Notes: generated from the letters alone by a model not told the origin. A stretch of DNA of 32,000 bases from Dickeya dadantii NCPPB 898 (GCF_000406145.1 NZ_CM001976.1:73186-105185), one strand, 5' to 3'; shown: positions 8,844 through 18,875, numbered from the stretch's first letter. Numbers and translations: made by a program.

Positions 8844-9036
8844 GTCCTTTCGATAACGGAAAGGTTACGCCCTGTTGGCCTTCGTGGAAAACGGAGGTTG
8901 TTGAAGATATCTTTCTATTTTTTTGATGGGAAATACAGTCAGGAATGGAAAACAACTCAATGATTTTTATTGAATTTGTTGTTTTTTGAGCGATTTTTTA
9001 GGATATGCCAAGTTACGTCAAGAAGGCGAAAAATTT

Positions 9037-10323
9037 GTGAAGAATGAAGACAGTCAGATAACACTTAATGCTTTTTCACACCAGTTAACCAATATAAATA
9101 TCTGGTCGTGCGATGGCAAATGGTTGATTTATGACGTTCGGCCGCATGGATCTTCATTCACAGGATTGACCATCGAACGCGTCAACGTGGAAACCCGCCA
9201 GCGCGAGGTGCTTTACCGTGCCGGGCAGGGCGCGCATGTCGGCGTGGCGACCGGCAGCCCGGTGGCGCCGCAGCGTTATGTGTTTATCCACGGCCCGGAA
9301 AATCCCGATGAACACTGGCAGTACGATTTCCATCACCGCCGCGGCGTGATGATGCACGATGATGACCGCCGGCAGGCGACGACGCTGGATGCCTGCGTGC
9401 TGACGGCACCGTATCTGGCCGGCGCGCTGCGCGGCGGTTCGCATGTGCATGTGTTCAGCCCGGACGGCAGTCGGTTGAGCTTTACCTACAACGACCATGT
9501 GCTGCACGAGCGCGACCCGGCGCTGGATCTGCGCAACGTCGGGGTGGCGGTGCCGCTGCATCCGGTGGTTGCTCCGCACCGCCATCCGCGCGAGCACGAC
9601 GGCAGCCATTTCTGCGTGCTGGTGAGCGACACCACGCCGCAGCCGCGCCCCGGCAGCGATGACATCAACCGCGCCTATGAGGAAGGCTGGGTGGGAACCG
9701 CGGGCTATCTGCGCCCGGATGGCCGCCGCCAGCGCTGGGCGCTGGCGTTTATCGGCGATACGCTGTCGGCGCGCGGCGAGAAAGTGCCGGAGGTGTTTCT
9801 CGTCGATTTGCCGGAACAGCTGGACGACTACGCCCGCCCCGGCGACCGGCCGCTGGGCGGCACCGACGCCGCATTGCCCGCGCTGCCTGCCGGCGTGCGC
9901 CAACGGCGGCTCACCTTCACCACCGACAGGCCGCATCCCGGTGTGGTCAATCAGCCGCGCCACTGGTTACGCAGTTCGCCGGACGGCAGCCAAATTGCGT
10001 TTCTGATGCAAGACGACCGCGGCGTGGTGCAACTGTGGACGGTATCGCCGAACGGCGGCGCGCCGCGTCAGGTGACGCAGGGCGACTGGCCGGTGCAGTC
10101 GGCGTTCAGCTGGCATCCGGACGGCAGGCATCTGGCGTTCATTTGCGACAACAGCGTGATGCTGTGCGAGGTGGCAACCGGCCGGCTAATTCGCCAGACC
10201 GCGCGTAGCGAAACGCCGCCGGTGGGGGACGCGGTGGTGTTTTCACCGAATGGCGATCGCATCGCCTACCTGCGGGATATTGATGGCTGCAACCAGATTT
10301 TCGTGGTGACGGCCATGCGTTAA
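9037..10323 (+). CDS. yidR: YidR (DUF3748) beta-propeller protein of unknown function
   Basis: Colinear with E. coli YidR (LTNxNxW..D..WLxxDVRP, GGSHVHVFSPDG, INRAYEEGWVG, VVFSPNG). GTG at 9037 with GAAGG upstream is preferred. TTG at 8986 is the longest possible start. Confidence 0.85.
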   Translation: MKNEDSQITLNAFSHQLTNINIWSCDGKWLIYDVRPHGSSFTGLTIERVNVETRQREVLYRAGQGAHVGVATGSPVAPQRYVFIHGPENPDEHWQYDFHHRRGVMMHDDDRRQATTLDACVLTAPYLAGALRGGSHVHVFSPDGSRLSFTYNDHVLHERDPALDLRNVGVAVPLHPVVAPHRHPREHDGSHFCVLVSDTTPQPRPGSDDINRAYEEGWVGTAGYLRPDGRRQRWALAFIGDTLSARGEKVPEVFLVDLPEQLDDYARPGDRPLGGTDAALPALPAGVRQRRLTFTTDRPHPGVVNQPRHWLRSSPDGSQIAFLMQDDRGVVQLWTVSPNGGAPRQVTQGDWPVQSAFSWHPDGRHLAFICDNSVMLCEVATGRLIRQTARSETPPVGDAVVFSPNGDRIAYLRDIDGCNQIFVVTAMR

Positions 10324-10374: not shown

Positions 10375-10423
10375 TGCTTACCTCTCTTCCGCCATTCCCC
10401 TCTGCGGTTTTCATCGAGCCACT

Positions 10424-10473
10424 GTTTTGATTGCGATCTACGGTTTTGATTGCGATCCACTGTTTTGATTGCC
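10424..10473 (+). repeat. three tandem direct repeats, period 19 bp, in the kinase-operon promoter region
   Basis: GTTTTGATTGCGATC at 10424-10438 and 10443-10457. GTTTTGATTGCC at 10462-10473. A degenerate fourth copy starts near 10407. Confidence 0.7.
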
Positions 10474-10573
10474 CAATAAAACTGTTTCCTTTCAAACGAT
10501 TACTTTTTATTCACCGATCCGCCTCACAGTTCACAGCAAAAAACATTGTCACCTGCTCTGCGCTTCCAATACA

Positions 10574-10593
10574 TTGCTAACTCGACTTAGCAA
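10574..10593 (+). promoter_or_regulatory. 20-bp CG-centred palindrome, candidate LacI-family operator
   Basis: TTGCTAACTC|GACTTAGCAA, 9 of 10 symmetric with a central CG. Ends 12 bp before the kinase ATG, just upstream of its AAGAGA SD. Confidence 0.4.
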
Positions 10594-10605
10594 AGAGATT
10601 TCAGC

Positions 10606-12192
10606 ATGAAAAACGGTTGCTTCATCGGTGTGGATGTCGGGTCGGCCAGCGTCAGGGCCGGGGTGTTTGACGGCGAGGGCCAACGCCTGGCGTTTGCGGT
10701 GCGGCCTATCGAACAGTTTCATCCCCGCACCCACATGGTGGAGCAATCATCGACGGATATCTGGCAGGCGGTCGGCGCCTGTGTGCGTGAGGCGCTGAGC
10801 GTAGCGGCGGTTGCCCCTTCGCTGGTGCGCGCCATCGGCTTTGACGCCACCTGCTCGCTGGTGGCGGTCGGGCCGCAAGGGCATCCGGTATCGGTGGCCG
10901 AGCAGCACGACCCGCAGCGGGACATCATCATGTGGATGGATCACCGCGCCGCCGCCGAAACCGCCGACATCAACGCCACCGGCGACGAGGCGCTGCGCTA
11001 TGTGGGCGGCGAGGTCAGTATTGAGATGGAATTGCCCAAGATCCTGTGGCTGAAGCGTCATTTCCCGGCACGTTATCAGCAGGTATGGCGCTTTTTCGAT
11101 CTGGCGGACTATCTGGTGTGGCGCGCCACCGGCGCGGACGCCGCCAGCGTCTGCACCCTGACCTGCAAGTGGAACTATCTGGCGCACGAAAACCGCTTTA
11201 GCGACAGCCTGTTGCAGGCGGTCGGGCTGGCCGATCTGCAGCAGAAAATCCCGCCGCGCATCCTGCAACTGGGCGAGGCGGCCGGAACGCTGGCGGCTGA
11301 CGTGGCGCGCGACTGGGGGCTGCCGGAAAACGTGGTGGTCGCCGGTGGCATTATTGACGCCCACGCCGGTGGGCTGGCGCTGGTGGGCAGCGAACCGCAG
11401 GGCAGCCTCGCCGTCATCAGCGGAACGTCTAACTGCCATATGCTGGTCAGCCGCCAGCCGGTTGAAGTACCCGGCGTGTGGGGGCCGTACTGGGGGGCGA
11501 TGCTGCCGCAGTGGTGGCTCAACGAAGGCGGGCAGAGCGCGGCGGGCGCGCTGGTGGAATGGACGTTGCGCCAGCATGCGCAGTGGCCAGTGTTGACCGC
11601 GCAGGCGGAGCAACAGCGCCGTAGCCCGTATGCATTGCTGAACGAGTGGGTAGCGTCGCTGGAGCAGCGCGAGCCGTTGCCGACCCGCCATCTGCACGTG
11701 CTGGCGGATCACCACGGCAACCGCTCGCCGCGCGCCAACCCGGATGCGCGCGGTGTCGTGATGGGGCTGACGCTGGAACAAGGGCCGGATGCGCTGGCGC
11801 GGCTGTATCTGGCGACATTGCAGGCGATCGCCTACGGCACCCGGCACATTATTGAGGCGTTGAATCAAGACGGTCATCAGATTACCCGGCTGACGATGTG
11901 CGGCGGCGCCACCAAAAATCCGCTGTGGCTGCGGGAATACGCCGCCATCACCGGTTGCGATATTCAACTGGCGAGCGAAGAAGACGCGGTCACGCTCGGC
12001 GCCGCGTTGCTGGGGGCGGTGGCCTGTGGCGCGTATCCCTCGCTGCCGCAAGCGGCGCAGGCGCTGGTGCAGCCCGGCCCGCTTATCCGCACCGACCGCC
12101 GCAATCAACCGTTTCACGACGCCAAATACCAGATTTATCTACAGATGTATGACTACCAGCAGGCCGTCCAGCAACAGATGAGCCGTCACTGA
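10606..12192 (+). CDS. FGGY-family carbohydrate kinase (pentulose/ribulokinase-like clade)
   Basis: 528-aa ORF. N-terminal FIGVDVGSASVRAGVFD phosphate-1 motif, GTSNCHM and MCGGATKNPLW FGGY motifs. Length is typical of FGGY pentulose kinases. Confidence 0.8.
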   Translation: MKNGCFIGVDVGSASVRAGVFDGEGQRLAFAVRPIEQFHPRTHMVEQSSTDIWQAVGACVREALSVAAVAPSLVRAIGFDATCSLVAVGPQGHPVSVAEQHDPQRDIIMWMDHRAAAETADINATGDEALRYVGGEVSIEMELPKILWLKRHFPARYQQVWRFFDLADYLVWRATGADAASVCTLTCKWNYLAHENRFSDSLLQAVGLADLQQKIPPRILQLGEAAGTLAADVARDWGLPENVVVAGGIIDAHAGGLALVGSEPQGSLAVISGTSNCHMLVSRQPVEVPGVWGPYWGAMLPQWWLNEGGQSAAGALVEWTLRQHAQWPVLTAQAEQQRRSPYALLNEWVASLEQREPLPTRHLHVLADHHGNRSPRANPDARGVVMGLTLEQGPDALARLYLATLQAIAYGTRHIIEALNQDGHQITRLTMCGGATKNPLWLREYAAITGCDIQLASEEDAVTLGAALLGAVACGAYPSLPQAAQALVQPGPLIRTDRRNQPFHDAKYQIYLQMYDYQQAVQQQMSRH

Positions 12193-12242
12193 TAGCCGAA
12201 TTTTCTTCCGGCGCAGTCCGGAGAGGACACCAGGAGCATACT

Positions 12243-13913
12243 ATGTTGGAACAACGTGTTTCGTTGACACTGAATCTTCCCGCTTCACCCCGCCGGCTTT
12301 CCGTCGGCGAACGTGAGGTTTTGCTGGTTACCAACGCGGATCTGCGGGAATCCGCCAACCTGACCTGCTGGCCGACCCAGCAGCAGTTTGAAAGCCGCCT
12401 GCAGAGCGCGCTGGAGCAACTGGGATACCGCATGACGCGCGCCCATGCGGTGGACAGCGCCCGCGGGCACGGCTTCATCAGCAGCCAGCGGGAAGGCAGC
12501 GACGTGTTCGCCGCGCTCGACCCCGACGCGCCGGTCATCGTGTTGCTGACCGCCTGGCAGTATTCCCACCATATCGCGCCGTCGCTGGTGCATCACCGCG
12601 GCCCGGTGCTGCTGCTGGCTAACTTCGACGGCACCTGGCCGGGGCTGGTGGGCATGCTGTGCATGGCGGGCTGCCTGACCAGCCTTGGGCGCGACTATTC
12701 CCGGTTGTGGTCGGCGACGTTCGACGATGACGCGTTCCGTCAGGGGCTGGCGACCTGGCTGCGCGACGGCGCGGTGAGTCACAAGACCGGCTATTTGCGC
12801 CTGGTGGCGGCGTCTCACCCGGTGCTGGCGACCCCGGCCGGTCAGGTCGGCCGTCAGGTCGGGGAATACATTCTGCGGCATAAGGCGATTATCGGGCTGT
12901 TCGACACCTTCTGCATGGGGATGATTAACGGCGTGTTCCCGCAGCAGGCAATGGTGACTATCGGTATGCCGATCGAATCGTTGTCGCAGTCGGCGTTGCT
13001 GGTGGAGATGGCGAAGGTGCCGCACGCTCTGCGGGAAAGCTGTCTGGCATGGTATGAGCAGCGCGGCATGCGGTTTGAGTTCGGTGATGACGGCAGCCGC
13101 CAGCTGACGCGCGATCAGGTGCTGGAACAGTGCGCGATGATGATCGCCATGGCGCGCTTTACCCAGCGTTTCGGGCTGGCGGCGGTTGGGGTGCAGTACC
13201 AGCAGGGGCTGAAGGACAGCTGCGCCGCGTCTGATTTCGCCGAAGGGGCCATCGGTAACGCGGAACGCTTCCCGCTGCCGGATGAGCAGGGCGAGCCGAT
13301 TCGTCCCGACGTCGCCATCCCCTGCATCAACGAGGTGGACATGGGCAGCGCCATTCCGCAGGTGATGTTGTGGCACCTGCTGCACGGGCTGGGGCTGCCG
13401 GCGGAAACCACGCTGCACGATATTCGCTGGGGCAGCGAGCATCAGGGCGTCTTCTATTGGGATCTGGAAATTTCCGGCGCGGTGCCGTTCGCTCATCTCA
13501 AAGGCGGCATCGCCGGCGCCACCGGCTATCGTCAGCCACCGATGTTCTTCCCGTACGGCGGTTCCACCATCGCCGGGCAGGGCAAAGCGGGGCGTTTTGT
13601 CTGGGCGCGGGCGCATTACGAAGGCACGCAGGTGATGATGCATATCGGCACCGGCACGGCGGTGGAACTGCCTGCAGATGAATTTGAACGCCGCCGCCGT
13701 GCTACCAACTACGAGTGGCCGCTGCTCAACGCGGTGCTGGACGGCGTCACCCGCGACGACCTGATGGCGGGCCACCAGAGCAACCACCTGACGGTGGCGT
13801 ATGTGGACGAGGATAAGCTCGCCGAGGTGCTGAAAGCCTTTGTCGCGCAGGCGTTGACGCAACACATTCAGGTATGGACGGCGGGCGACGCTCACCGGTT
13901 GCTGGCGGAGTAA
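12243..13913 (+). CDS. L-fucose/L-arabinose isomerase superfamily protein (divergent FucI-like aldose-ketose isomerase)
   Basis: 556-aa ORF. By-eye alignment to E. coli FucI: LLANFDGTWPGLVGML vs WGFNGTERPGAVYL; CINEVDMGSA vs ATENDSLNG (Glu337); HDIRW vs ADVRT (Asp361); QSNHLTVAY vs GANHGVLTIGH (His528). AGGAG SD. Confidence 0.65.
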   Translation: MLEQRVSLTLNLPASPRRLSVGEREVLLVTNADLRESANLTCWPTQQQFESRLQSALEQLGYRMTRAHAVDSARGHGFISSQREGSDVFAALDPDAPVIVLLTAWQYSHHIAPSLVHHRGPVLLLANFDGTWPGLVGMLCMAGCLTSLGRDYSRLWSATFDDDAFRQGLATWLRDGAVSHKTGYLRLVAASHPVLATPAGQVGRQVGEYILRHKAIIGLFDTFCMGMINGVFPQQAMVTIGMPIESLSQSALLVEMAKVPHALRESCLAWYEQRGMRFEFGDDGSRQLTRDQVLEQCAMMIAMARFTQRFGLAAVGVQYQQGLKDSCAASDFAEGAIGNAERFPLPDEQGEPIRPDVAIPCINEVDMGSAIPQVMLWHLLHGLGLPAETTLHDIRWGSEHQGVFYWDLEISGAVPFAHLKGGIAGATGYRQPPMFFPYGGSTIAGQGKAGRFVWARAHYEGTQVMMHIGTGTAVELPADEFERRRRATNYEWPLLNAVLDGVTRDDLMAGHQSNHLTVAYVDEDKLAEVLKAFVAQALTQHIQVWTAGDAHRLLAE

Positions 13914-13916
13914 ATC

Positions 13917-14876
13917 ATGACTTACGACAACCCATCTTTTAACGATGAAAACAAGTACGCCGGCATCTGGCCGGTGATGCTCACCCCGTTCGACGCGCGC
14001 GGCGAAATCGACTATGCCTCGCTGGCGCGGCTGGTGGAGTGGTATCTGGACGCCGGCGTGCACGGGCTGTTCGCCGCCTGCCAGTCCAGCGAGATGTTTT
14101 TCTTAAGCGATGCGGAAACCCGCGAGCTGGTGCGCTTTATCGTAGCGCAGGTGGACGGCCGGGTGCCGGTGGTGGCGTCAGGCCATACCGCCAGCGCGTT
14201 CAGCCAGCAGGTGGACCAACTGAACGGCGTGGCGGAAACCGGCGTGGACGGCGTGATCCTGATCAGCAACCGGTTGGCGCTGGCGGGCGAGCCGGACGAA
14301 CAGGCGCTGGCTCGCTTGCAGGCATTGACGGCGCAACTGCCCGCGCAGGTGGATCTGGGCATCTACGAATGTCCTTACCCTTACAAACGGCTGCTGTCTG
14401 ACGAGACGGTTGCCTGGTGCGCGCGCAGCAGGCGTTACACCTTCATTAAAGACACCTGTTGCGATCTGCCGACCATTCGCCGGCGGTTGCAACTGGCGCA
14501 GAACTCGCGCCTGCATCTGGCGAATGCCAACAGCCAGACGCTGCTGGCGTCGTTGCAAGCCGGCTGTCAGGCCTACAGCGGGGTGATGGCCAATTTCCAT
14601 CCGCAGCTGTACGTGTGGCTGTTCGAACACTGGCGCGAGCATCCGGCGGCGGCGCAGCAACTGGCGGACTATCTAGGTACGGCGGCGCTGGCGGAGTTTC
14701 TCGATTATCCGGCCTGCGCCAAGTTCTATCAGCAGCAATGTGGTACGTTCTCGACCCACGTGTGCCGGGTGCGCAACAGCGCGGCTTACGGCGAGAGTTT
14801 CTTCCCGCAGGCGATTGAGAGCATGCTCCGGCTGGGCCAGACGCTGGAGACGCAGCTCCCGGCATCGCTCCGGTAA
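13917..14876 (+). CDS. DHDPS / N-acetylneuraminate lyase family class I (Schiff-base) pyruvate aldolase
   Basis: 319-aa ORF. PVMLTPFDARGEIDYASLARLVEWYLDAGVHGLF, IYECPYPY (catalytic Tyr position) and YTFIKDT (Schiff-base Lys position). The usual GTTGE motif is replaced by CQSSEM. Start lies 3 bp after the isomerase stop. Confidence 0.8.
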   Translation: MTYDNPSFNDENKYAGIWPVMLTPFDARGEIDYASLARLVEWYLDAGVHGLFAACQSSEMFFLSDAETRELVRFIVAQVDGRVPVVASGHTASAFSQQVDQLNGVAETGVDGVILISNRLALAGEPDEQALARLQALTAQLPAQVDLGIYECPYPYKRLLSDETVAWCARSRRYTFIKDTCCDLPTIRRRLQLAQNSRLHLANANSQTLLASLQAGCQAYSGVMANFHPQLYVWLFEHWREHPAAAQQLADYLGTAALAEFLDYPACAKFYQQQCGTFSTHVCRVRNSAAYGESFFPQAIESMLRLGQTLETQLPASLR

Positions 14877-14892
14877 CCTGAAGGACACCCTG

Positions 14893-15939
14893 ATGAAGCT
14901 GACAATGACAACACAGCAATTCGTCCTGCCCGAAGGGCATGACTACTTCGGCAACTGCCACGCCTCGACCGCGGCGGTATTGCCGGAGGGGCGGCTACGG
15001 GTGGCCTGGTTTGCCGGTGAAAAGGAAGGCAGCGGCGATACCGCTATCTGGCTGGCCTGCGCCGAGCAGGGGCGCTGGCTGCCGCCGGTACGGGTGGCGT
15101 GGGAAGACGGGCTGGCGCACTGGAACCCGGTGTTGCATTGGCAGGCGGGCACGCTGTGGCTGTTCTATAAAGTGGGCGCCGATGTGCACCACTGGCAGAC
15201 GCGGGTGACGGTATCGACGGATGACGGCGCGAGCTGGTCCGCCCCACGCCCGCTGGTGCCCGGCGACAGTGCGCCGCGCGGGCCGGTGAAGAACAAACTG
15301 CTGGTGATGTCCAACGGCGAGTGGCTGGCGCCTGCATCGGTTGAAGACGATCGTCATTGGGACGCGTTTGTCGACCTTAGCGGCGATCGGGGGCGGAGCT
15401 GGCAGACGGTGCCGATTCCGCTGACCCACCGGACGCCCGGTGAGCGTGACGGCGAGGCGTTGTGGCAGGGGCTGGAGCAGGCGGCGCTGTGGGAAAATGA
15501 CCTGACGCGGGTGTTTCAGTGGGACGGCGTGATCCAGCCATCGGCATGGGAGTCGTCGCCGGGGCAGGTGCATGTGCTGATGCGCAGCACCCGCGGCGCG
15601 CTGTACCGCAGCGATTCGGACGATTACGGCCGCCGCTGGCGCGAGGCTTACGCCATTGATTTGCCGAACAACAACAGCGGCGTCGATCTGGCGCATCTGG
15701 GCGCGGGCCGTCTGGTGCTGGTCTACAACCCGGTGACCGGTAACTGGCGCCACCGCTATCCGCTGACGGTGGCCTGTTCCACCGACAACGGCGAGCACTG
15801 GGAAAACAGTATCGATCTTGAGCAGGAACCCGGCGAGTTCTCTTATCCCGCCATTATTGCCGATGGCGACACGTTACATGTGACCTACACCTGGAATCGA
15901 AAAAATATCGTTTACTGCGCGCTGATATTCAGCGGGTAG
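14893..15939 (+). CDS. BNR/Asp-box sialidase-like six-bladed propeller protein, no signal peptide
   Basis: 348 aa from MKLTMTTQQF with GAAGGA SD. Three Asp-boxes: STDDGASW, SGDRGRSW and STDNGEHW. CHASTAAVLPEG, WNPVL, GPVKNK, PNNNSG and YPAII..G..LHVTYTW resemble the BNR_2 exo-alpha-sialidase-like family. The ORF-track start at 14740 overlaps the lyase and is rejected. Confidence 0.8.
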   Translation: MKLTMTTQQFVLPEGHDYFGNCHASTAAVLPEGRLRVAWFAGEKEGSGDTAIWLACAEQGRWLPPVRVAWEDGLAHWNPVLHWQAGTLWLFYKVGADVHHWQTRVTVSTDDGASWSAPRPLVPGDSAPRGPVKNKLLVMSNGEWLAPASVEDDRHWDAFVDLSGDRGRSWQTVPIPLTHRTPGERDGEALWQGLEQAALWENDLTRVFQWDGVIQPSAWESSPGQVHVLMRSTRGALYRSDSDDYGRRWREAYAIDLPNNNSGVDLAHLGAGRLVLVYNPVTGNWRHRYPLTVACSTDNGEHWENSIDLEQEPGEFSYPAIIADGDTLHVTYTWNRKNIVYCALIFSG

Positions 15940-16052
15940 TCGTTGTAGCACTCAAAAAAACCTGTACCCTACACCCCCCGCCGACCTCCGGGTACGGCGG
16001 CGTCCGGATGGCTTTGCCTGAAGGGCGATAAAATCATAAAGCGAGGAACATC

Positions 16053-17405
16053 ATGTCGATTTCCGTGGAATTATCCCAACACCAGGCGATGCACAATAAA
16101 TCCAATATCCGCCGCGTGGTGATCTCCAGTTGGATTGGCAACACCATCGAGTTTTACGATTTCCTGCTCTACGGACTGGCGAGCGCGCTGGTGTTTGGCA
16201 AACTGTTCTTTCCCACCGTCAGCCCGATGGCGGCGATGCTGGCGTCGTTCGCTACCTTTGGCGTGGGGTTCATTGCCCGCCCGCTGGGCGGCATCTTCTT
16301 CGGCCACATGGGCGACACCCTGGGGCGTAAGCTGACGCTGCTGATTACCCTCGGCGGTATGGGGATGGCGACGTTTCTGATCGGCTGCCTGCCCACCTAT
16401 CACCAGATTGGCGTCTGGGCGCCGGTGCTGCTGGTGGTGCTGCGTTTCGTACAGGGCTTTCTGGTGGGCGGCGAGTGGGGCGGCGCCATGCTGATGGTGG
16501 TGGAAACCGCGCCCGCCAACCGTCGCGGCCTGCTCGGCTCCATTCCTCAGACCGGCGGTTTTTCCGGACAGCTGCTGGCGACGGCGATATTCGCCATGGT
16601 GTCGACGCTGCCGGAAGATCAACTGATGTCCTGGGGCTGGCGCGTGCCGTTCATGCTGAGCGTGGCGCTGGTGCTGGTGGGGCTGTATATGCGCCGTAAG
16701 GTGGATGAAACGCCGGTGTTCCAGCAAGTCCAGCAGCAACAACAGCAACAGCAAACGCGTGAGCAGGAGCCGGTGCGCCGTCAAAGCCCGGTGGTGGAAG
16801 TGCTGCGTAAACAGTGGCGCAGCGTTTGCCTGATCATGGTGCTGCGCTTCGCGGAAAGCGTGCCGTTCTTTTTGGCGACGGTGTTTGCGGTGTCCTACGC
16901 CACCGTACAGCTGGGCGTGCCCAAACAGACCATGCTTAACGTGATCATGGCGACCTGCGTGATGGCGTTCCCGATGCATGCGCTGTTCGGCGCGCTGTCC
17001 GACCGGGTCGGCCGCCGTCCGATCTATATCTTCGGGGCGCTGTGCGCCGCGGCGATGGCGTTCCCGTTCTTCTATCTGCTGGAAAGCGGCTCCTTTGGTC
17101 TGATGGTGCTGGGATACATTCTGCTGATTAATATTGCCCACAACTCCATCAACGCGGTGCAACCGGCGTTCTTTACCGAACTGTTCGGCCCGAAAGTACG
17201 TTACAGCGGCGCGTCCATCGGCGCACAACTGGGGGCGATTGTGGCGGGCGGTTTCACCCCGTTTATCGCCAAGGGGCTCACCGCGATGGATAACGAGTCC
17301 TGGACGCTGGTGGCGACCTACGTCACGGTAGCGGCGCTGGTGGCGGCGTTCGCCGCCTGGAAAGCGCCGGAAACCTCGCACCGTGATATGACCAAAGACG
17401 TGTGA
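16053..17405 (+). CDS. MFS transporter, metabolite:H+ symporter (MHS; KgtP/ShiA/ProP-like) family
   Basis: 450-aa ORF. WIGNTIEFYDFLLYGLASALVFGKLFFP and GHMGDTLGRK motifs are typical of MHS. 12 predicted TM segments by eye. Poly-Q in the central loop. Confidence 0.85.
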   Translation: MSISVELSQHQAMHNKSNIRRVVISSWIGNTIEFYDFLLYGLASALVFGKLFFPTVSPMAAMLASFATFGVGFIARPLGGIFFGHMGDTLGRKLTLLITLGGMGMATFLIGCLPTYHQIGVWAPVLLVVLRFVQGFLVGGEWGGAMLMVVETAPANRRGLLGSIPQTGGFSGQLLATAIFAMVSTLPEDQLMSWGWRVPFMLSVALVLVGLYMRRKVDETPVFQQVQQQQQQQQTREQEPVRRQSPVVEVLRKQWRSVCLIMVLRFAESVPFFLATVFAVSYATVQLGVPKQTMLNVIMATCVMAFPMHALFGALSDRVGRRPIYIFGALCAAAMAFPFFYLLESGSFGLMVLGYILLINIAHNSINAVQPAFFTELFGPKVRYSGASIGAQLGAIVAGGFTPFIAKGLTAMDNESWTLVATYVTVAALVAAFAAWKAPETSHRDMTKDV

Positions 17406-17414
17406 TTTATTGAT

Positions 17415-17438
17415 CGCGGCCAGGGTCGGCCGCGCTTT
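17415..17438 (+). terminator. hairpin after the MFS gene (weak terminator)
   Basis: CGCGGCC-AGGGTC-GGCCGCG followed by CTTT. Confidence 0.4.
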
Positions 17439-17505
17439 AGCTGCGTCGAGTTAGTTATTCCGTTACACTGGCTGTCTTTCAGTTCTCACAGGGATATTCT
17501 GTTTC

Positions 17506-18510
17506 ATGGCGAAAACAGTTGAACAGATTGCCAGTGCCTTGAAGCTGTCCGTGACCACGGTGCGTCTGGTGCTGAATGGAAAAGCGGAACAGTATCGAAT
17601 CAGCGCCAAAACCCAGCAACGCATCCACCAGTACGTAACCGAGTACGGTTACACCGTCAATCACGTCGCCCGCAGCCTGAAGCTGAACAAAACCGAAACA
17701 TTGGGGCTGATCGTGCCCCGCTTATCCAACCTGTTTTTCTCGACGCTGGCCGAAAAGCTCGAAACCCGCTGCCGCGAGGTGGGCTATCAGTTGATGATCA
17801 GCTGTTCTTACAGCGACCCGCAGTACGAAAACCGGCTGGTGGAGGCGCTGTTGCAGCGCAATGTCGACGGGCTGTTCGTGGTGCCGTCGTCGCTACAGGC
17901 GGCTCAGCACCACGCGAAGGTGGTGAAAAAGCCGCTGGTGCTGCTGGACCGCGACTTCGGCATCGATCAACTGCCGCTGGTAATGAGTGACAACCTGCAG
18001 GGCGGGGCGGCGCTGACCGAAGCGATGCTGGCCGTCCAGCCCGCTGCGCCGTTGTTTTTCATGGCCGGCGACGTGCAGCAGCCGGCGATCCGCGACCGTT
18101 TGCGCGGCTATCACCAGTCGGTGCAGCAGGCCGGGCTGACCCCGGCGGTGCTGGAGGCCAGTCATAACCGTCGCGAGGACGGCATGTTGATGATGGAGCA
18201 GTTTTTGCGCCAGCACGACGCGCCGCCGCCGGCGTTCATCGCGTCGTCACTGCCGGTGCTGGAAGGGATGTTAAGCGTGGTGCGTGAGCGCTATGGCTAT
18301 ATTCCGGCGCACATCAATATCGGCACCTTCGATGAACACGCCATGCTGGGATTTTTGCCGAATACCTTGTGGTCGATGCGCCAGAACGAAGACGCCTGGA
18401 CTGAACAGGCGTTTGCGGCGATGCAGCAGGCGCTGAACGGCGAGGCGCAGCCGCACAAGGCGGTGATCCCCATGACCTTGATCCACCGCCGCCAGGCTGA
18501 ACGTCACTGA
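17506..18510 (+). CDS. LacI/GalR-family transcriptional regulator
   Basis: 334-aa ORF. N-terminal HTH TVEQIASALKLSVTTVRLVLNG...VNHVARSLK and a periplasmic-binding-protein-like sugar-binding core. Confidence 0.9.
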   Translation: MAKTVEQIASALKLSVTTVRLVLNGKAEQYRISAKTQQRIHQYVTEYGYTVNHVARSLKLNKTETLGLIVPRLSNLFFSTLAEKLETRCREVGYQLMISCSYSDPQYENRLVEALLQRNVDGLFVVPSSLQAAQHHAKVVKKPLVLLDRDFGIDQLPLVMSDNLQGGAALTEAMLAVQPAAPLFFMAGDVQQPAIRDRLRGYHQSVQQAGLTPAVLEASHNRREDGMLMMEQFLRQHDAPPPAFIASSLPVLEGMLSVVRERYGYIPAHINIGTFDEHAMLGFLPNTLWSMRQNEDAWTEQAFAAMQQALNGEAQPHKAVIPMTLIHRRQAERH

Positions 18511-18875
18511 CCGGCGTTATTGGCTGAGACGGGTATCATCGTCGGCGGCGGATCGCCTGCCGGTTTGCGGCGTTCGTATTCTTCCAGCCGGTCGCGGGCC
18601 GAAGTATTGTGGTGGTCGCTGTGGGTTCGATAATAGTCATAGGGTAACAGCAGCGTATCCAGCATGGCGGAGAAGGGAACATCCAGCGCTACCATCGGCA
18701 TCATCGCCCAACTGGTGTCCTCGTTTTTTAGCGTGGTCATGCTGGATTTGGTGCCGGAATAGTACCCCTGCTCGCCGCCAGAGTGAGTCATCACACTAGA
18801 GCAGCCACCGCATGTCACCAGTATCCCGCCTGACAACACAAACGACAATGAGGCATTTTTCAGTATGGTCATCAT
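18504..18875 (-). CDS. yidQ: YidQ (DUF1375) lipoprotein
   Basis: Lipobox-like LVTCGGCSSVMTHSGG and LDVPFSAMLDTLLLPYDYY match E. coli YidQ. Adjacent to ibpA as in E. coli. Its 3' end overlaps the LacI gene by 7 bp (convergent). Confidence 0.8.
   Translation of the reverse strand: MMTILKNASLSFVLSGGILVTCGGCSSVMTHSGGEQGYYSGTKSSMTTLKNEDTSWAMMPMVALDVPFSAMLDTLLLPYDYYRTHSDHHNTSARDRLEEYERRKPAGDPPPTMIPVSANNAGQ

Follow-up and report, generated by a model that had tools for sequence, protein, structure and literature searches.

The window analysed here is a stretch of 32,000 nucleotides (nt) from Dickeya dadantii NCPPB 898 (GCF_000406145.1, NZ_CM001976.1:73186-105185), and its subject is a six-gene island lying between a yidR-like gene and yidQ. 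Open reading frame (ORF) calling across the window placed six co-directional frames on the plus strand at 10606-18510, encoding a sugar kinase, an isomerase-like protein, a lyase of the dihydrodipicolinate synthase/N-acetylneuraminate lyase (DHDPS/NAL) family, a sialidase-like propeller, a carrier of the metabolite:H+ symporter (MHS) type within the major facilitator superfamily (MFS) and a LacI-family repressor (Table 1). The intergenic gaps along this block are 50, 3, 16, 113 and 100 nt, and the ORF coordinates match exactly the first four of these as given in the original prediction for this DNA. We consider it likely that the locus encodes a ulosonic-acid pathway of the lyase, isomerase, kinase type and, with less assurance, that the island probably imports 3-deoxy-D-manno-octulosonate (Kdo) or small Kdo glycosides and splits Kdo to pyruvate and D-arabinose. 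The families and order of the genes, the conserved operator and the swapping of modules were observed, conservation of residues in the isomerase, lyase and sialidase-like protein was judged by alignment, and every substrate is one that we infer.

Table 1. Features of the island, its regulatory region and its flanks; positions are counted from the first letter of the window.
Feature	Position	Strand	Basis and remarks
FGGY pentulose kinase, predicted D-ribulokinase	10606..12192	+	528 aa; TIGR01315
Divergent FucI/AraA-superfamily aldose-ketose isomerase, predicted D-arabinose isomerase	12243..13913	+	556 aa; predicted fold
DHDPS/NAL-family class I (Schiff-base) lyase, predicted Kdo aldolase	13917..14876	+	319 aa; PF00701
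Six-bladed protein of sialidase fold (BNR_2) with no leader, predicted to hydrolyse Kdo glycosides in the cytoplasm	14893..15939	+	PF13088
MHS-type MFS organic-anion:H+ symporter, predicted importer	16053..17405	+	450 aa; TIGR00883
LacI-family repressor, FruR/Cra-like subfamily	17506..18510	+	334 aa; TIGR02417, 252 bits, below cutoff
LacI-type palindromic operator TTGCTAACTCGACTTAGCAA, predicted	10574..10593		about 13 nt before the kinase start codon
Sigma-70-like promoter TTGTCA, 18 nt spacer, TACATT, putative	10546..10575	+	consensus scan, 9/12 matches; assigned by position
Degenerate operator-like sequence TAGCTGCGTCGAGTTAGTTA upstream of the LacI gene	17437..17457		read from sequence
Three tandem 19-bp units CGATCCACGGTTTTGATTG, regulatory region upstream of the operator	10415..10472		Tandem Repeats Finder
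yidR-like gene (DUF3748 beta-propeller), left flank	8986..10323	+	PF12566, 206 bits
yidQ (DUF1375 lipoprotein), right flank	18504..18875	-	NF008628, 128 bits (cutoff 91)

The kinase scores 550.4 bits against TIGR01315 (cutoff 408.7), which we take to be a subfamily containing D-ribulokinases, and falls below the cutoffs of the AraB, XylB, FucK and GlpK equivalogs; its best solved relative is 3gg4/3l0q (E 9e-141). For the isomerase-like protein, profile searching returned Fucose_iso_C as the sole Pfam match (28.4 bits, below the gathering threshold of 29.3), with no FucI N1 or N2 domain and no NCBIfam match, which leaves the protein outside the FucI family as defined by profile. Sequence comparison with Protein Data Bank (PDB) chains also gave no match, and a predicted structure was needed. 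In the AlphaFold model (predicted local distance difference test, pLDDT, 86.6) the fold is similar, at Foldseek E ≤ 0.001, only to L-fucose, D-arabinose and L-arabinose isomerases, with E values to FucI, D-arabinose isomerase and AraA of 1e-19 to 1e-13. An hhalign alignment with FucI (30% probability) places the invariant His515 on the Mn ligand His528 and Glu348 near Glu337, and also aligns a C-terminal ELP...TN..WP block. The 120 closest of the 5757 homologues detected are 74-99% identical; the family bears the NCBI name ‘signal transduction protein’, and no homologue listed carries a functional annotation. Judged from the modelled fold, which gives it no support, this name appears to be a misnomer.

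The lyase matches PF00701 at 81 bits. When it is aligned with a NanA-like lyase, Lys178 (in FIKDT) falls in VKHT and Tyr150 (in IYECP) in LYNIP, the positions of the catalytic lysine and tyrosine. The best solved relatives are DapA and YagE (E 1e-16 to 1e-13), and the score lies below the DapA and KdgD cutoffs among the NCBIfam equivalogs. It is far below those of the NanA models (NF003164, 38.5 bits versus 281; TIGR00683, 33.7 versus 382), and the segment opposite NGFDE reads ANANSQ. All homologues of the lyase carry generic database names.

Residues of the sialidase-like protein (348 aa) are numbered from the ATG at 14893, which lies 3 nt after a TTG at 14890. The protein scores 244 bits against PF13088 (BNR_2), and its N-terminus, MKLTMTTQQFVLPEG, has no hydrophobic leader. 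An exact-sequence lookup returned no record. Comparison with PDB chains by sequence gave no match, so that a structure prediction was needed here too; the top Foldseek PDB matches of the AlphaFold model (pLDDT 88) are all sialidases of glycoside hydrolase family 33 (GH33), with E 4e-16 and a TM-score of about 0.72. In a profile alignment with the Bacteroides thetaiotaomicron sialidase 4bbw, in which GEFSYP stands opposite GEgWGYS and LWES opposite VVET, Tyr318 falls on the nucleophilic tyrosine, Glu220 on its glutamate partner, and Arg231 and Arg288 on two arginines of the carboxylate-binding triad. Across 40 homologues Tyr318 is invariant and Glu220 at least 90% conserved, and Arg231 and Arg288, the second and third triad arginines, are likewise invariant. 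A weak alignment with human Neu2 (E 0.015) places the invariant Asp49 on the acid/base; when it is extended by hand without gaps, the position of the RIP-motif arginine is taken by an invariant His23 within Cys-His-Ala-Ser.

The carrier reaches 432 bits against TIGR00883, just short of the cutoff of 443, and 434 bits against the shikimate transporter model, also below cutoff. At other loci it is exchanged for TctCBA, tripartite ATP-independent periplasmic (TRAP) or CUT1-type ATP-binding cassette (ABC) systems; the TRAP and TctC binding proteins of sister loci have PDB relatives whose names give no ligand. The central cytoplasmic loop of the window carrier contains a glutamine run, QQVQQQQQQQQ (16722-16760). 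The repressor combines a helix-turn-helix with the fold of periplasmic binding proteins (PF00356, PF00532 and PF13377). Taken together, the family assignments of the original prediction stand. The FGGY pentulose kinase exceeds the curated TIGR01315 cutoff, the Schiff-base aldolase has the PF00701 match and retains the lysine and tyrosine, the leaderless BNR/Asp-box propeller is matched by PF13088, by a GH33-like model and by an N-terminus with no leader, and a LacI regulator indeed follows the carrier gene. The MHS-type anion:H+ carrier comes slightly below its cutoff, and the FucI-like isomerase holds at the level of fold, through its AlphaFold model and Foldseek, with a sub-threshold sequence match.

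The predicted operator was found by comparing the upstream regions of orthologous loci. It has a single match in the window at up to three mismatches and none in 100 shuffled sequences, and an inverted-repeat tool run on three intergenic regions did not detect it. Variants of this 18-20 bp palindrome are conserved across more than 25 loci and in most related loci stand before the leading gene of the module, regardless of which gene leads; the bearers include Proteus, Klebsiella, Brenneria, Serratia, Budvicia, Rhodoferax, Martelella, Pleomorphomonas, Vibrio, Telmatospirillum, E. coli and Chimaeribacter. The -10 element of the putative promoter abuts the operator, and the numbers of sites returned by the promoter and terminator scans were not above those in shuffled sequence. 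The degenerate copy before the LacI gene differs from the main operator at 6 of 20 positions and keeps the right half. Further upstream, a GATC..N..TCACA motif at 10516-10529, about 45-60 nt before the operator, occurs at the same relative position in the Brenneria, Serratia, Budvicia, Proteus, Atlantibacter and Buttiauxella loci and could represent a half-site of CRP type for catabolite control. The tandem 19-bp units (period 19, 3.1 copies, 87% matches) have no evident counterpart upstream of the other loci compared, and they could be sites for another regulator or a remnant of the insertion.

To place the island in a comparative context, one genome per species was scanned, which yielded 80 loci; with four additional non-redundant loci included, the analysis covered 83. 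A DHDPS gene lies near the sialidase-like gene in 43 of the 83 non-redundant loci, across Gamma-, Alpha- and Betaproteobacteria, Paenibacillus and Clostridia. Because the module recurs in many genomes, the arrangement is not due to chance. In Proteus, Martelella and a Klebsiella plasmid the module comprises the LacI gene and all four enzyme genes, with TctCBA instead of the MFS carrier (as in Proteus mirabilis). The Martelella order is lyase, sialidase-like gene, TctCBA, isomerase, kinase and LacI, and the Klebsiella pneumoniae plasmid module sits on a segment flanked by insertion sequences (IS). Hosts of the module include gut- and plant-associated Enterobacterales (Proteus, Klebsiella plasmids, Atlantibacter, Dickeya and Brenneria), Rhizobiales and Paenibacillus.

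Exchange of genes between such loci bears directly on the aldose. In a Paenibacillus locus (L067) the sialidase-like and DHDPS genes stand in a row with genes for a genuine FucI, at 1069 bits, and for an AraB-type ribulokinase, at 769 bits, which come right after the pair; three further loci carry DUF386, one with FucI (L049) and two with ribulokinase (L048 and L050), and we take DUF386 to be the YhcH/YjgK/YiaL family found in nan operons. At the Vibrio sinensis locus (L043), fucO-A-U-K-I has the genes for the lyase, TctCBA and the sialidase-like protein as neighbours, and the operator lies upstream of the lyase. A Chimaeribacter arupi plasmid locus (L092; CP119397, 6928-14592) combines a kinase orthologue (65% identical) and a LacI orthologue (60%) with a genuine FucI, a GPH symporter, a GH172 gene and two copies of the operator. 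This is an apparent D-arabinofuranoside utilisation regulon, as judged from its gene content, and we know of no such regulon described in Enterobacterales. The GH172 family includes exo-alpha-D-arabinofuranosidases (PMC10509167, PMC10115798).

A further variant, flanked by IS elements, was counted in 82 of the 5426 complete genomes of E. coli and is also borne by IncF plasmids (for example L088, E. coli CP033762, 7309-16577, and L091 on the Klebsiella plasmid CP118937), shares with the window the operator, the isomerase, the kinase (67% identity) and the LacI gene (64%). Its front end consists of a different MFS carrier, an enolase-superfamily dehydratase, a short-chain dehydrogenase/reductase (SDR), GlcG and a NanA-like lyase whose 274 bits fall slightly short of the NanA cutoff. 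The sialidase-like/DHDPS pair is flanked, at seven to nine loci of Firmicutes, by an oligosaccharide ABC system and a gene of the GH106 rhamnosidase family. Five of the Paenibacillus and Clostridia loci (L056, L062, L065, L072 and L081) share a conserved module in which two ABC permeases, a binding protein, the DHDPS gene and the sialidase-like gene are accompanied by a rhamnosidase-like GH106 gene (about 1040 aa) and an AraC-type regulator of 790 aa. Homologues of the sialidase-like protein that are 59-60% identical occur with no DHDPS gene in Polaromonas, Akkermansiaceae and Propionivibrio (L017, L022 and L031), next to a TRAP transporter, GFO/IDH/MocA oxidoreductases, a Zn-dependent alcohol dehydrogenase and an IclR regulator, a context that suggests a second, different use of the propeller.

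FucI acts also as a D-arabinose isomerase, and FucI combined with a ribulokinase, rather than with FucK and FucA, fits the route from D-arabinose through D-ribulose to ribulose phosphate. From the contexts in L067, L043 and L092 it follows that the kinase, the LacI gene and the operator form a D-arabinose module in which the window isomerase is interchangeable with FucI, and the back end of the island most likely processes D-arabinose, as far as its sequences tell. A sialidase fold, a Schiff-base pyruvate lyase and anion carriers in front of a D-arabinose back end in turn point to Kdo, the naturally occurring acid that splits into pyruvate and D-arabinose. The proposed route would begin with import of the acid by the MHS carrier, after which the cytoplasmic sialidase-fold enzyme would free Kdo from its ketosidic linkage and the DHDPS-family lyase would cleave Kdo to pyruvate and D-arabinose (the orphan activity EC 4.1.2.23); the divergent FucI/AraA-fold isomerase would convert D-arabinose to D-ribulose and the TIGR01315 kinase would deliver D-ribulose 5-phosphate to the pentose phosphate pathway. 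The repressor would bind the palindrome at 10574-10593, which overlaps the putative promoter, until released by a D-arabinose-derived metabolite. Such a metabolite, rather than Kdo, is probably what the repressor senses, because the repressor is common to front ends that are not for Kdo.

The original prediction had proposed the same chain, from glycoside through ulosonate, pyruvate and aldose to ketose and ketose phosphate, and it draws support from the conservation of the sialidase-like/DHDPS pair and from the replacement of the back end by FucI and ribulokinase. Its term ‘salvage’ does not hold, since the route is one of catabolism, and its option of 3-deoxy-D-lyxo-heptulosarate (Dha) falls away, the downstream enzymes not fitting a cleavage product that is no pentose. 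It had also known of no gene assigned to Kdo aldolase, in line with the outcome of the literature searches and with the database names.

Several observations count against this Kdo pathway. The lyase reaches no equivalog cutoff and lacks the GxDE motif of NanA, so that its sequence does not constrain the substrate. The isomerase resembles FucI at fold level only (13-15% identity, hhalign probability 30%), and hhalign left the counterpart of FucI Asp361 unaligned. Weakest of all is the role assigned to the sialidase-like protein. Its first triad arginine appears, from an alignment of low confidence (E 0.015), to be replaced by an invariant histidine. A monosaccharide-type carrier is moreover an awkward partner for a cytoplasmic glycosidase, given that free Kdo needs no hydrolase and no natural small Kdo glycoside was identified; the protein could take a small Kdo glycoside or act otherwise on free Kdo. 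About 16 of the loci with the pair have no isomerase or kinase within 9 kb, as called by a rough ORF caller that misclassified at least one locus. The dehydratase, SDR and NanA-like lyase of the E. coli/Klebsiella variant give no obvious route to D-arabinose; a speculative one would reduce D-glycero-D-talo-octulosonic acid (Ko) to octonate, dehydrate this to Kdo and then cleave it. A triose reading prompted by the same variant (glyceraldehyde to dihydroxyacetone to dihydroxyacetone phosphate) was rejected on the substitution of genuine FucI and ribulokinase elsewhere.

An unlikely alternative is that the locus serves D-arabinose or D-arabinoside utilisation and that its sialidase-like and DHDPS proteins neither release nor cleave Kdo; the propeller could, for example, cleave an acidic D-arabinose glycoside and the DHDPS protein act on 2-keto-3-deoxy-D-arabinonate. 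The kinase, LacI gene and operator do recur with GH172 and FucI and no lyase, and again with the enolase-superfamily dehydratase, SDR and NanA-like lyase typical of oxidative sugar routes, and from these non-Kdo front ends it follows that the repressor is not Kdo-specific. The sialidase-like and DHDPS genes nevertheless stay paired across phyla, even where isomerase and kinase are absent, which argues for sequential action on one substrate, and the tyrosine/glutamate pair and two of the three arginines of sialidases are kept. The transporters, moreover, are anion carriers and not sugar porters, and the window holds no dehydrogenase or dehydratase that would make a 2-keto-3-deoxy-pentonate.

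If the acid is a ulosonic acid, it need not be Kdo, and the sialidase fold with its GH33-type residues, the DHDPS/NAL-family lyase, carboxylate carriers that include TRAP systems related to SiaP, and DUF386 in some loci would suit another 3-deoxy-2-ulosonic acid handled by the same logic, such as 2-keto-3-deoxynononic acid (KDN), N-acetylneuraminic acid (Neu5Ac), Dha or a rhizobial or algal Kdo-like acid. The products of lyase cleavage are D-mannose from KDN, N-acetylmannosamine (ManNAc) from Neu5Ac and a tetruronic acid from Dha. D-mannose and ManNAc are not known substrates of FucI or of ribulokinase-type kinases, which replace the back end in Paenibacillus and Chimaeribacter, and Dha gives no pentose; the NanA motif is missing from the lyase, whose scores fall well short of the NanA cutoffs, and ORF and profile searches found no NanK-, NanE- or NagA/B-like gene among the six ORFs or the flanks, in agreement with the absence of NanK and NanE noted in the original prediction. 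We regard this broader class of substrates as improbable, and within it classic sialic acid catabolism (no NanK or NanE, a lyase far from NanA) and Dha (a product that is not a pentose) were rejected. There is very little to commend the further idea that the sialidase-like protein trims Kdo off the cell’s own lipopolysaccharide precursors, as KdhAB does, with its neighbours disposing of the Kdo: the catalytic subunit of KdhAB is sialidase-like (PMC3573668), but no ORF for a small membrane protein adjoins 14893-15939 or occurs elsewhere in the island, the window protein has neither leader nor anchor, and the operon has an importer and repressor control as in a catabolic locus. Close homologues also occur in the Gram-positive Paenibacillus and Clostridia, which have no lipopolysaccharide, and on this point and the missing membrane partner the idea was rejected.

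The Kdo reading, when joined with its wider corollaries, becomes a composite claim to which we would give an even chance. Under it, the island would be the first genetically defined Kdo pathway, with genes for EC 4.1.2.23, a GH33-like Kdo-glycosidase that works in the cytoplasm and binds the carboxylate through His-Arg-Arg, and a third, misannotated FucI/AraA clade made up of D-arabinose isomerases. The kinase, LacI gene and operator would constitute a mobile D-arabinose regulon with interchangeable front ends (for Kdo; for D-arabinofuranosides via GH172; and the dehydratase, SDR and NanA-like lyase of E. coli/Klebsiella).

Built from known folds, the island is a new variant of the sialic-acid-type catabolic cluster. 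It shares with nan clusters an anion transporter, a GH33-fold enzyme, a DHDPS/NAL pyruvate lyase, enzymes that return the aldose to metabolism and a local repressor, and some of its sister loci have DUF386 as nan operons do. In place of NanK and NanE it has an isomerase and a pentulose kinase; its lyase is distant from NanA and lacks GxDE, and its sialidase-like protein is cytoplasmic, with an apparent histidine for the first triad arginine. D-arabinose catabolism through FucI and a D-ribulokinase is known from the E. coli fuc system and RbtK-type kinases, and the steps from D-arabinose to D-ribulose and D-ribulose phosphate are common to both, with genuine FucI substituting in related loci. 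The island differs in that its isomerase belongs to a third branch of the FucI/AraA fold, one that carries no annotation and lacks the N-terminal FucI Pfam domains, and in that D-arabinose is proposed to arise in the cell from Kdo instead of being imported.

Likened by description, the KdhAB catalytic protein, the C-terminal domain of BT1013 and the window protein are all sialidase-like, and the first two release Kdo. KdhAB of Francisella/Helicobacter consists of a sialidase-like protein and a membrane partner and trims lipopolysaccharide (PMC3573668), and BT1013 is a GH78 rhamnosidase fused to a Kdo hydrolase that acts on chain C (Rha-Kdo) of rhamnogalacturonan-II (PMC13501991). The GH106/sialidase-like adjacency in Firmicutes, seen in the L056-L081 modules, mirrors this Bacteroides fusion. 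In contrast to the island, KdhAB needs its membrane subunit and remodels lipopolysaccharide, BT1013 belongs to a polysaccharide-utilisation system that is exported, and a lyase, isomerase and kinase accompany neither of the two.

The island lyase is proposed to carry out the reaction of Kdo aldolase, known as an activity, and the likeness is one of reaction alone. The enzyme was reportedly purified in 1966, its biochemistry being attributed to Ghalambor and Heath (1966) and Knappmann and Kula (1990). No gene assignment for Kdo aldolase or for Kdo catabolism was found by the literature searches or among database names, and those of the lyase, isomerase-like and sialidase-like proteins are all generic or wrong. 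Papers of 2025-2026 continue to give the enzyme by its EC number only; one of 2025 does so with the 1966 and 1990 references (PMC12199768). If the Kdo reading is correct, a 60-year-old orphan activity would gain its genes, thousands of annotations (‘signal transduction protein’, ‘exo-alpha-sialidase’, ‘dihydrodipicolinate synthase family’) would be corrected, and enzymes would become available for Kdo analytics and synthesis. Kdo is a component of almost all lipopolysaccharide of Gram-negative bacteria, of many capsules and of rhamnogalacturonan-II in plants, and B. thetaiotaomicron secretes free Kdo during rhamnogalacturonan-II breakdown rather than using it; if confirmed, the reading would also explain a cross-feeding niche for plant pathogens and uropathogens.

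The flanks of the island are those of an insertion. Only 1 bp separates yidQ from yidR in E. coli K-12, and the block in the window is therefore an insertion of about 8.2 kb, in agreement with the accessory insertion between these genes that had been suggested at the outset. Beyond yidQ on the right lie ibpA and ibpB. The GC content of the island is 0.60-0.66, compared with 0.51-0.55 in the downstream flank, and yidR itself is also GC-rich. The nearest homologues of the island proteins come from Dickeya (isomerase-like protein, 99% identity, D. dadantii; lyase, 95%, D. fangzhongdai). On the right side the 3' end of the LacI gene overlaps the convergent yidQ by 7 nt (18504-18510), which puts the right boundary of the island inside the yidQ stop region. 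On the left, the K-12 orthologue of yidR is annotated as a galacturonate catabolism protein, and the island thus adjoins a pectin-related gene.

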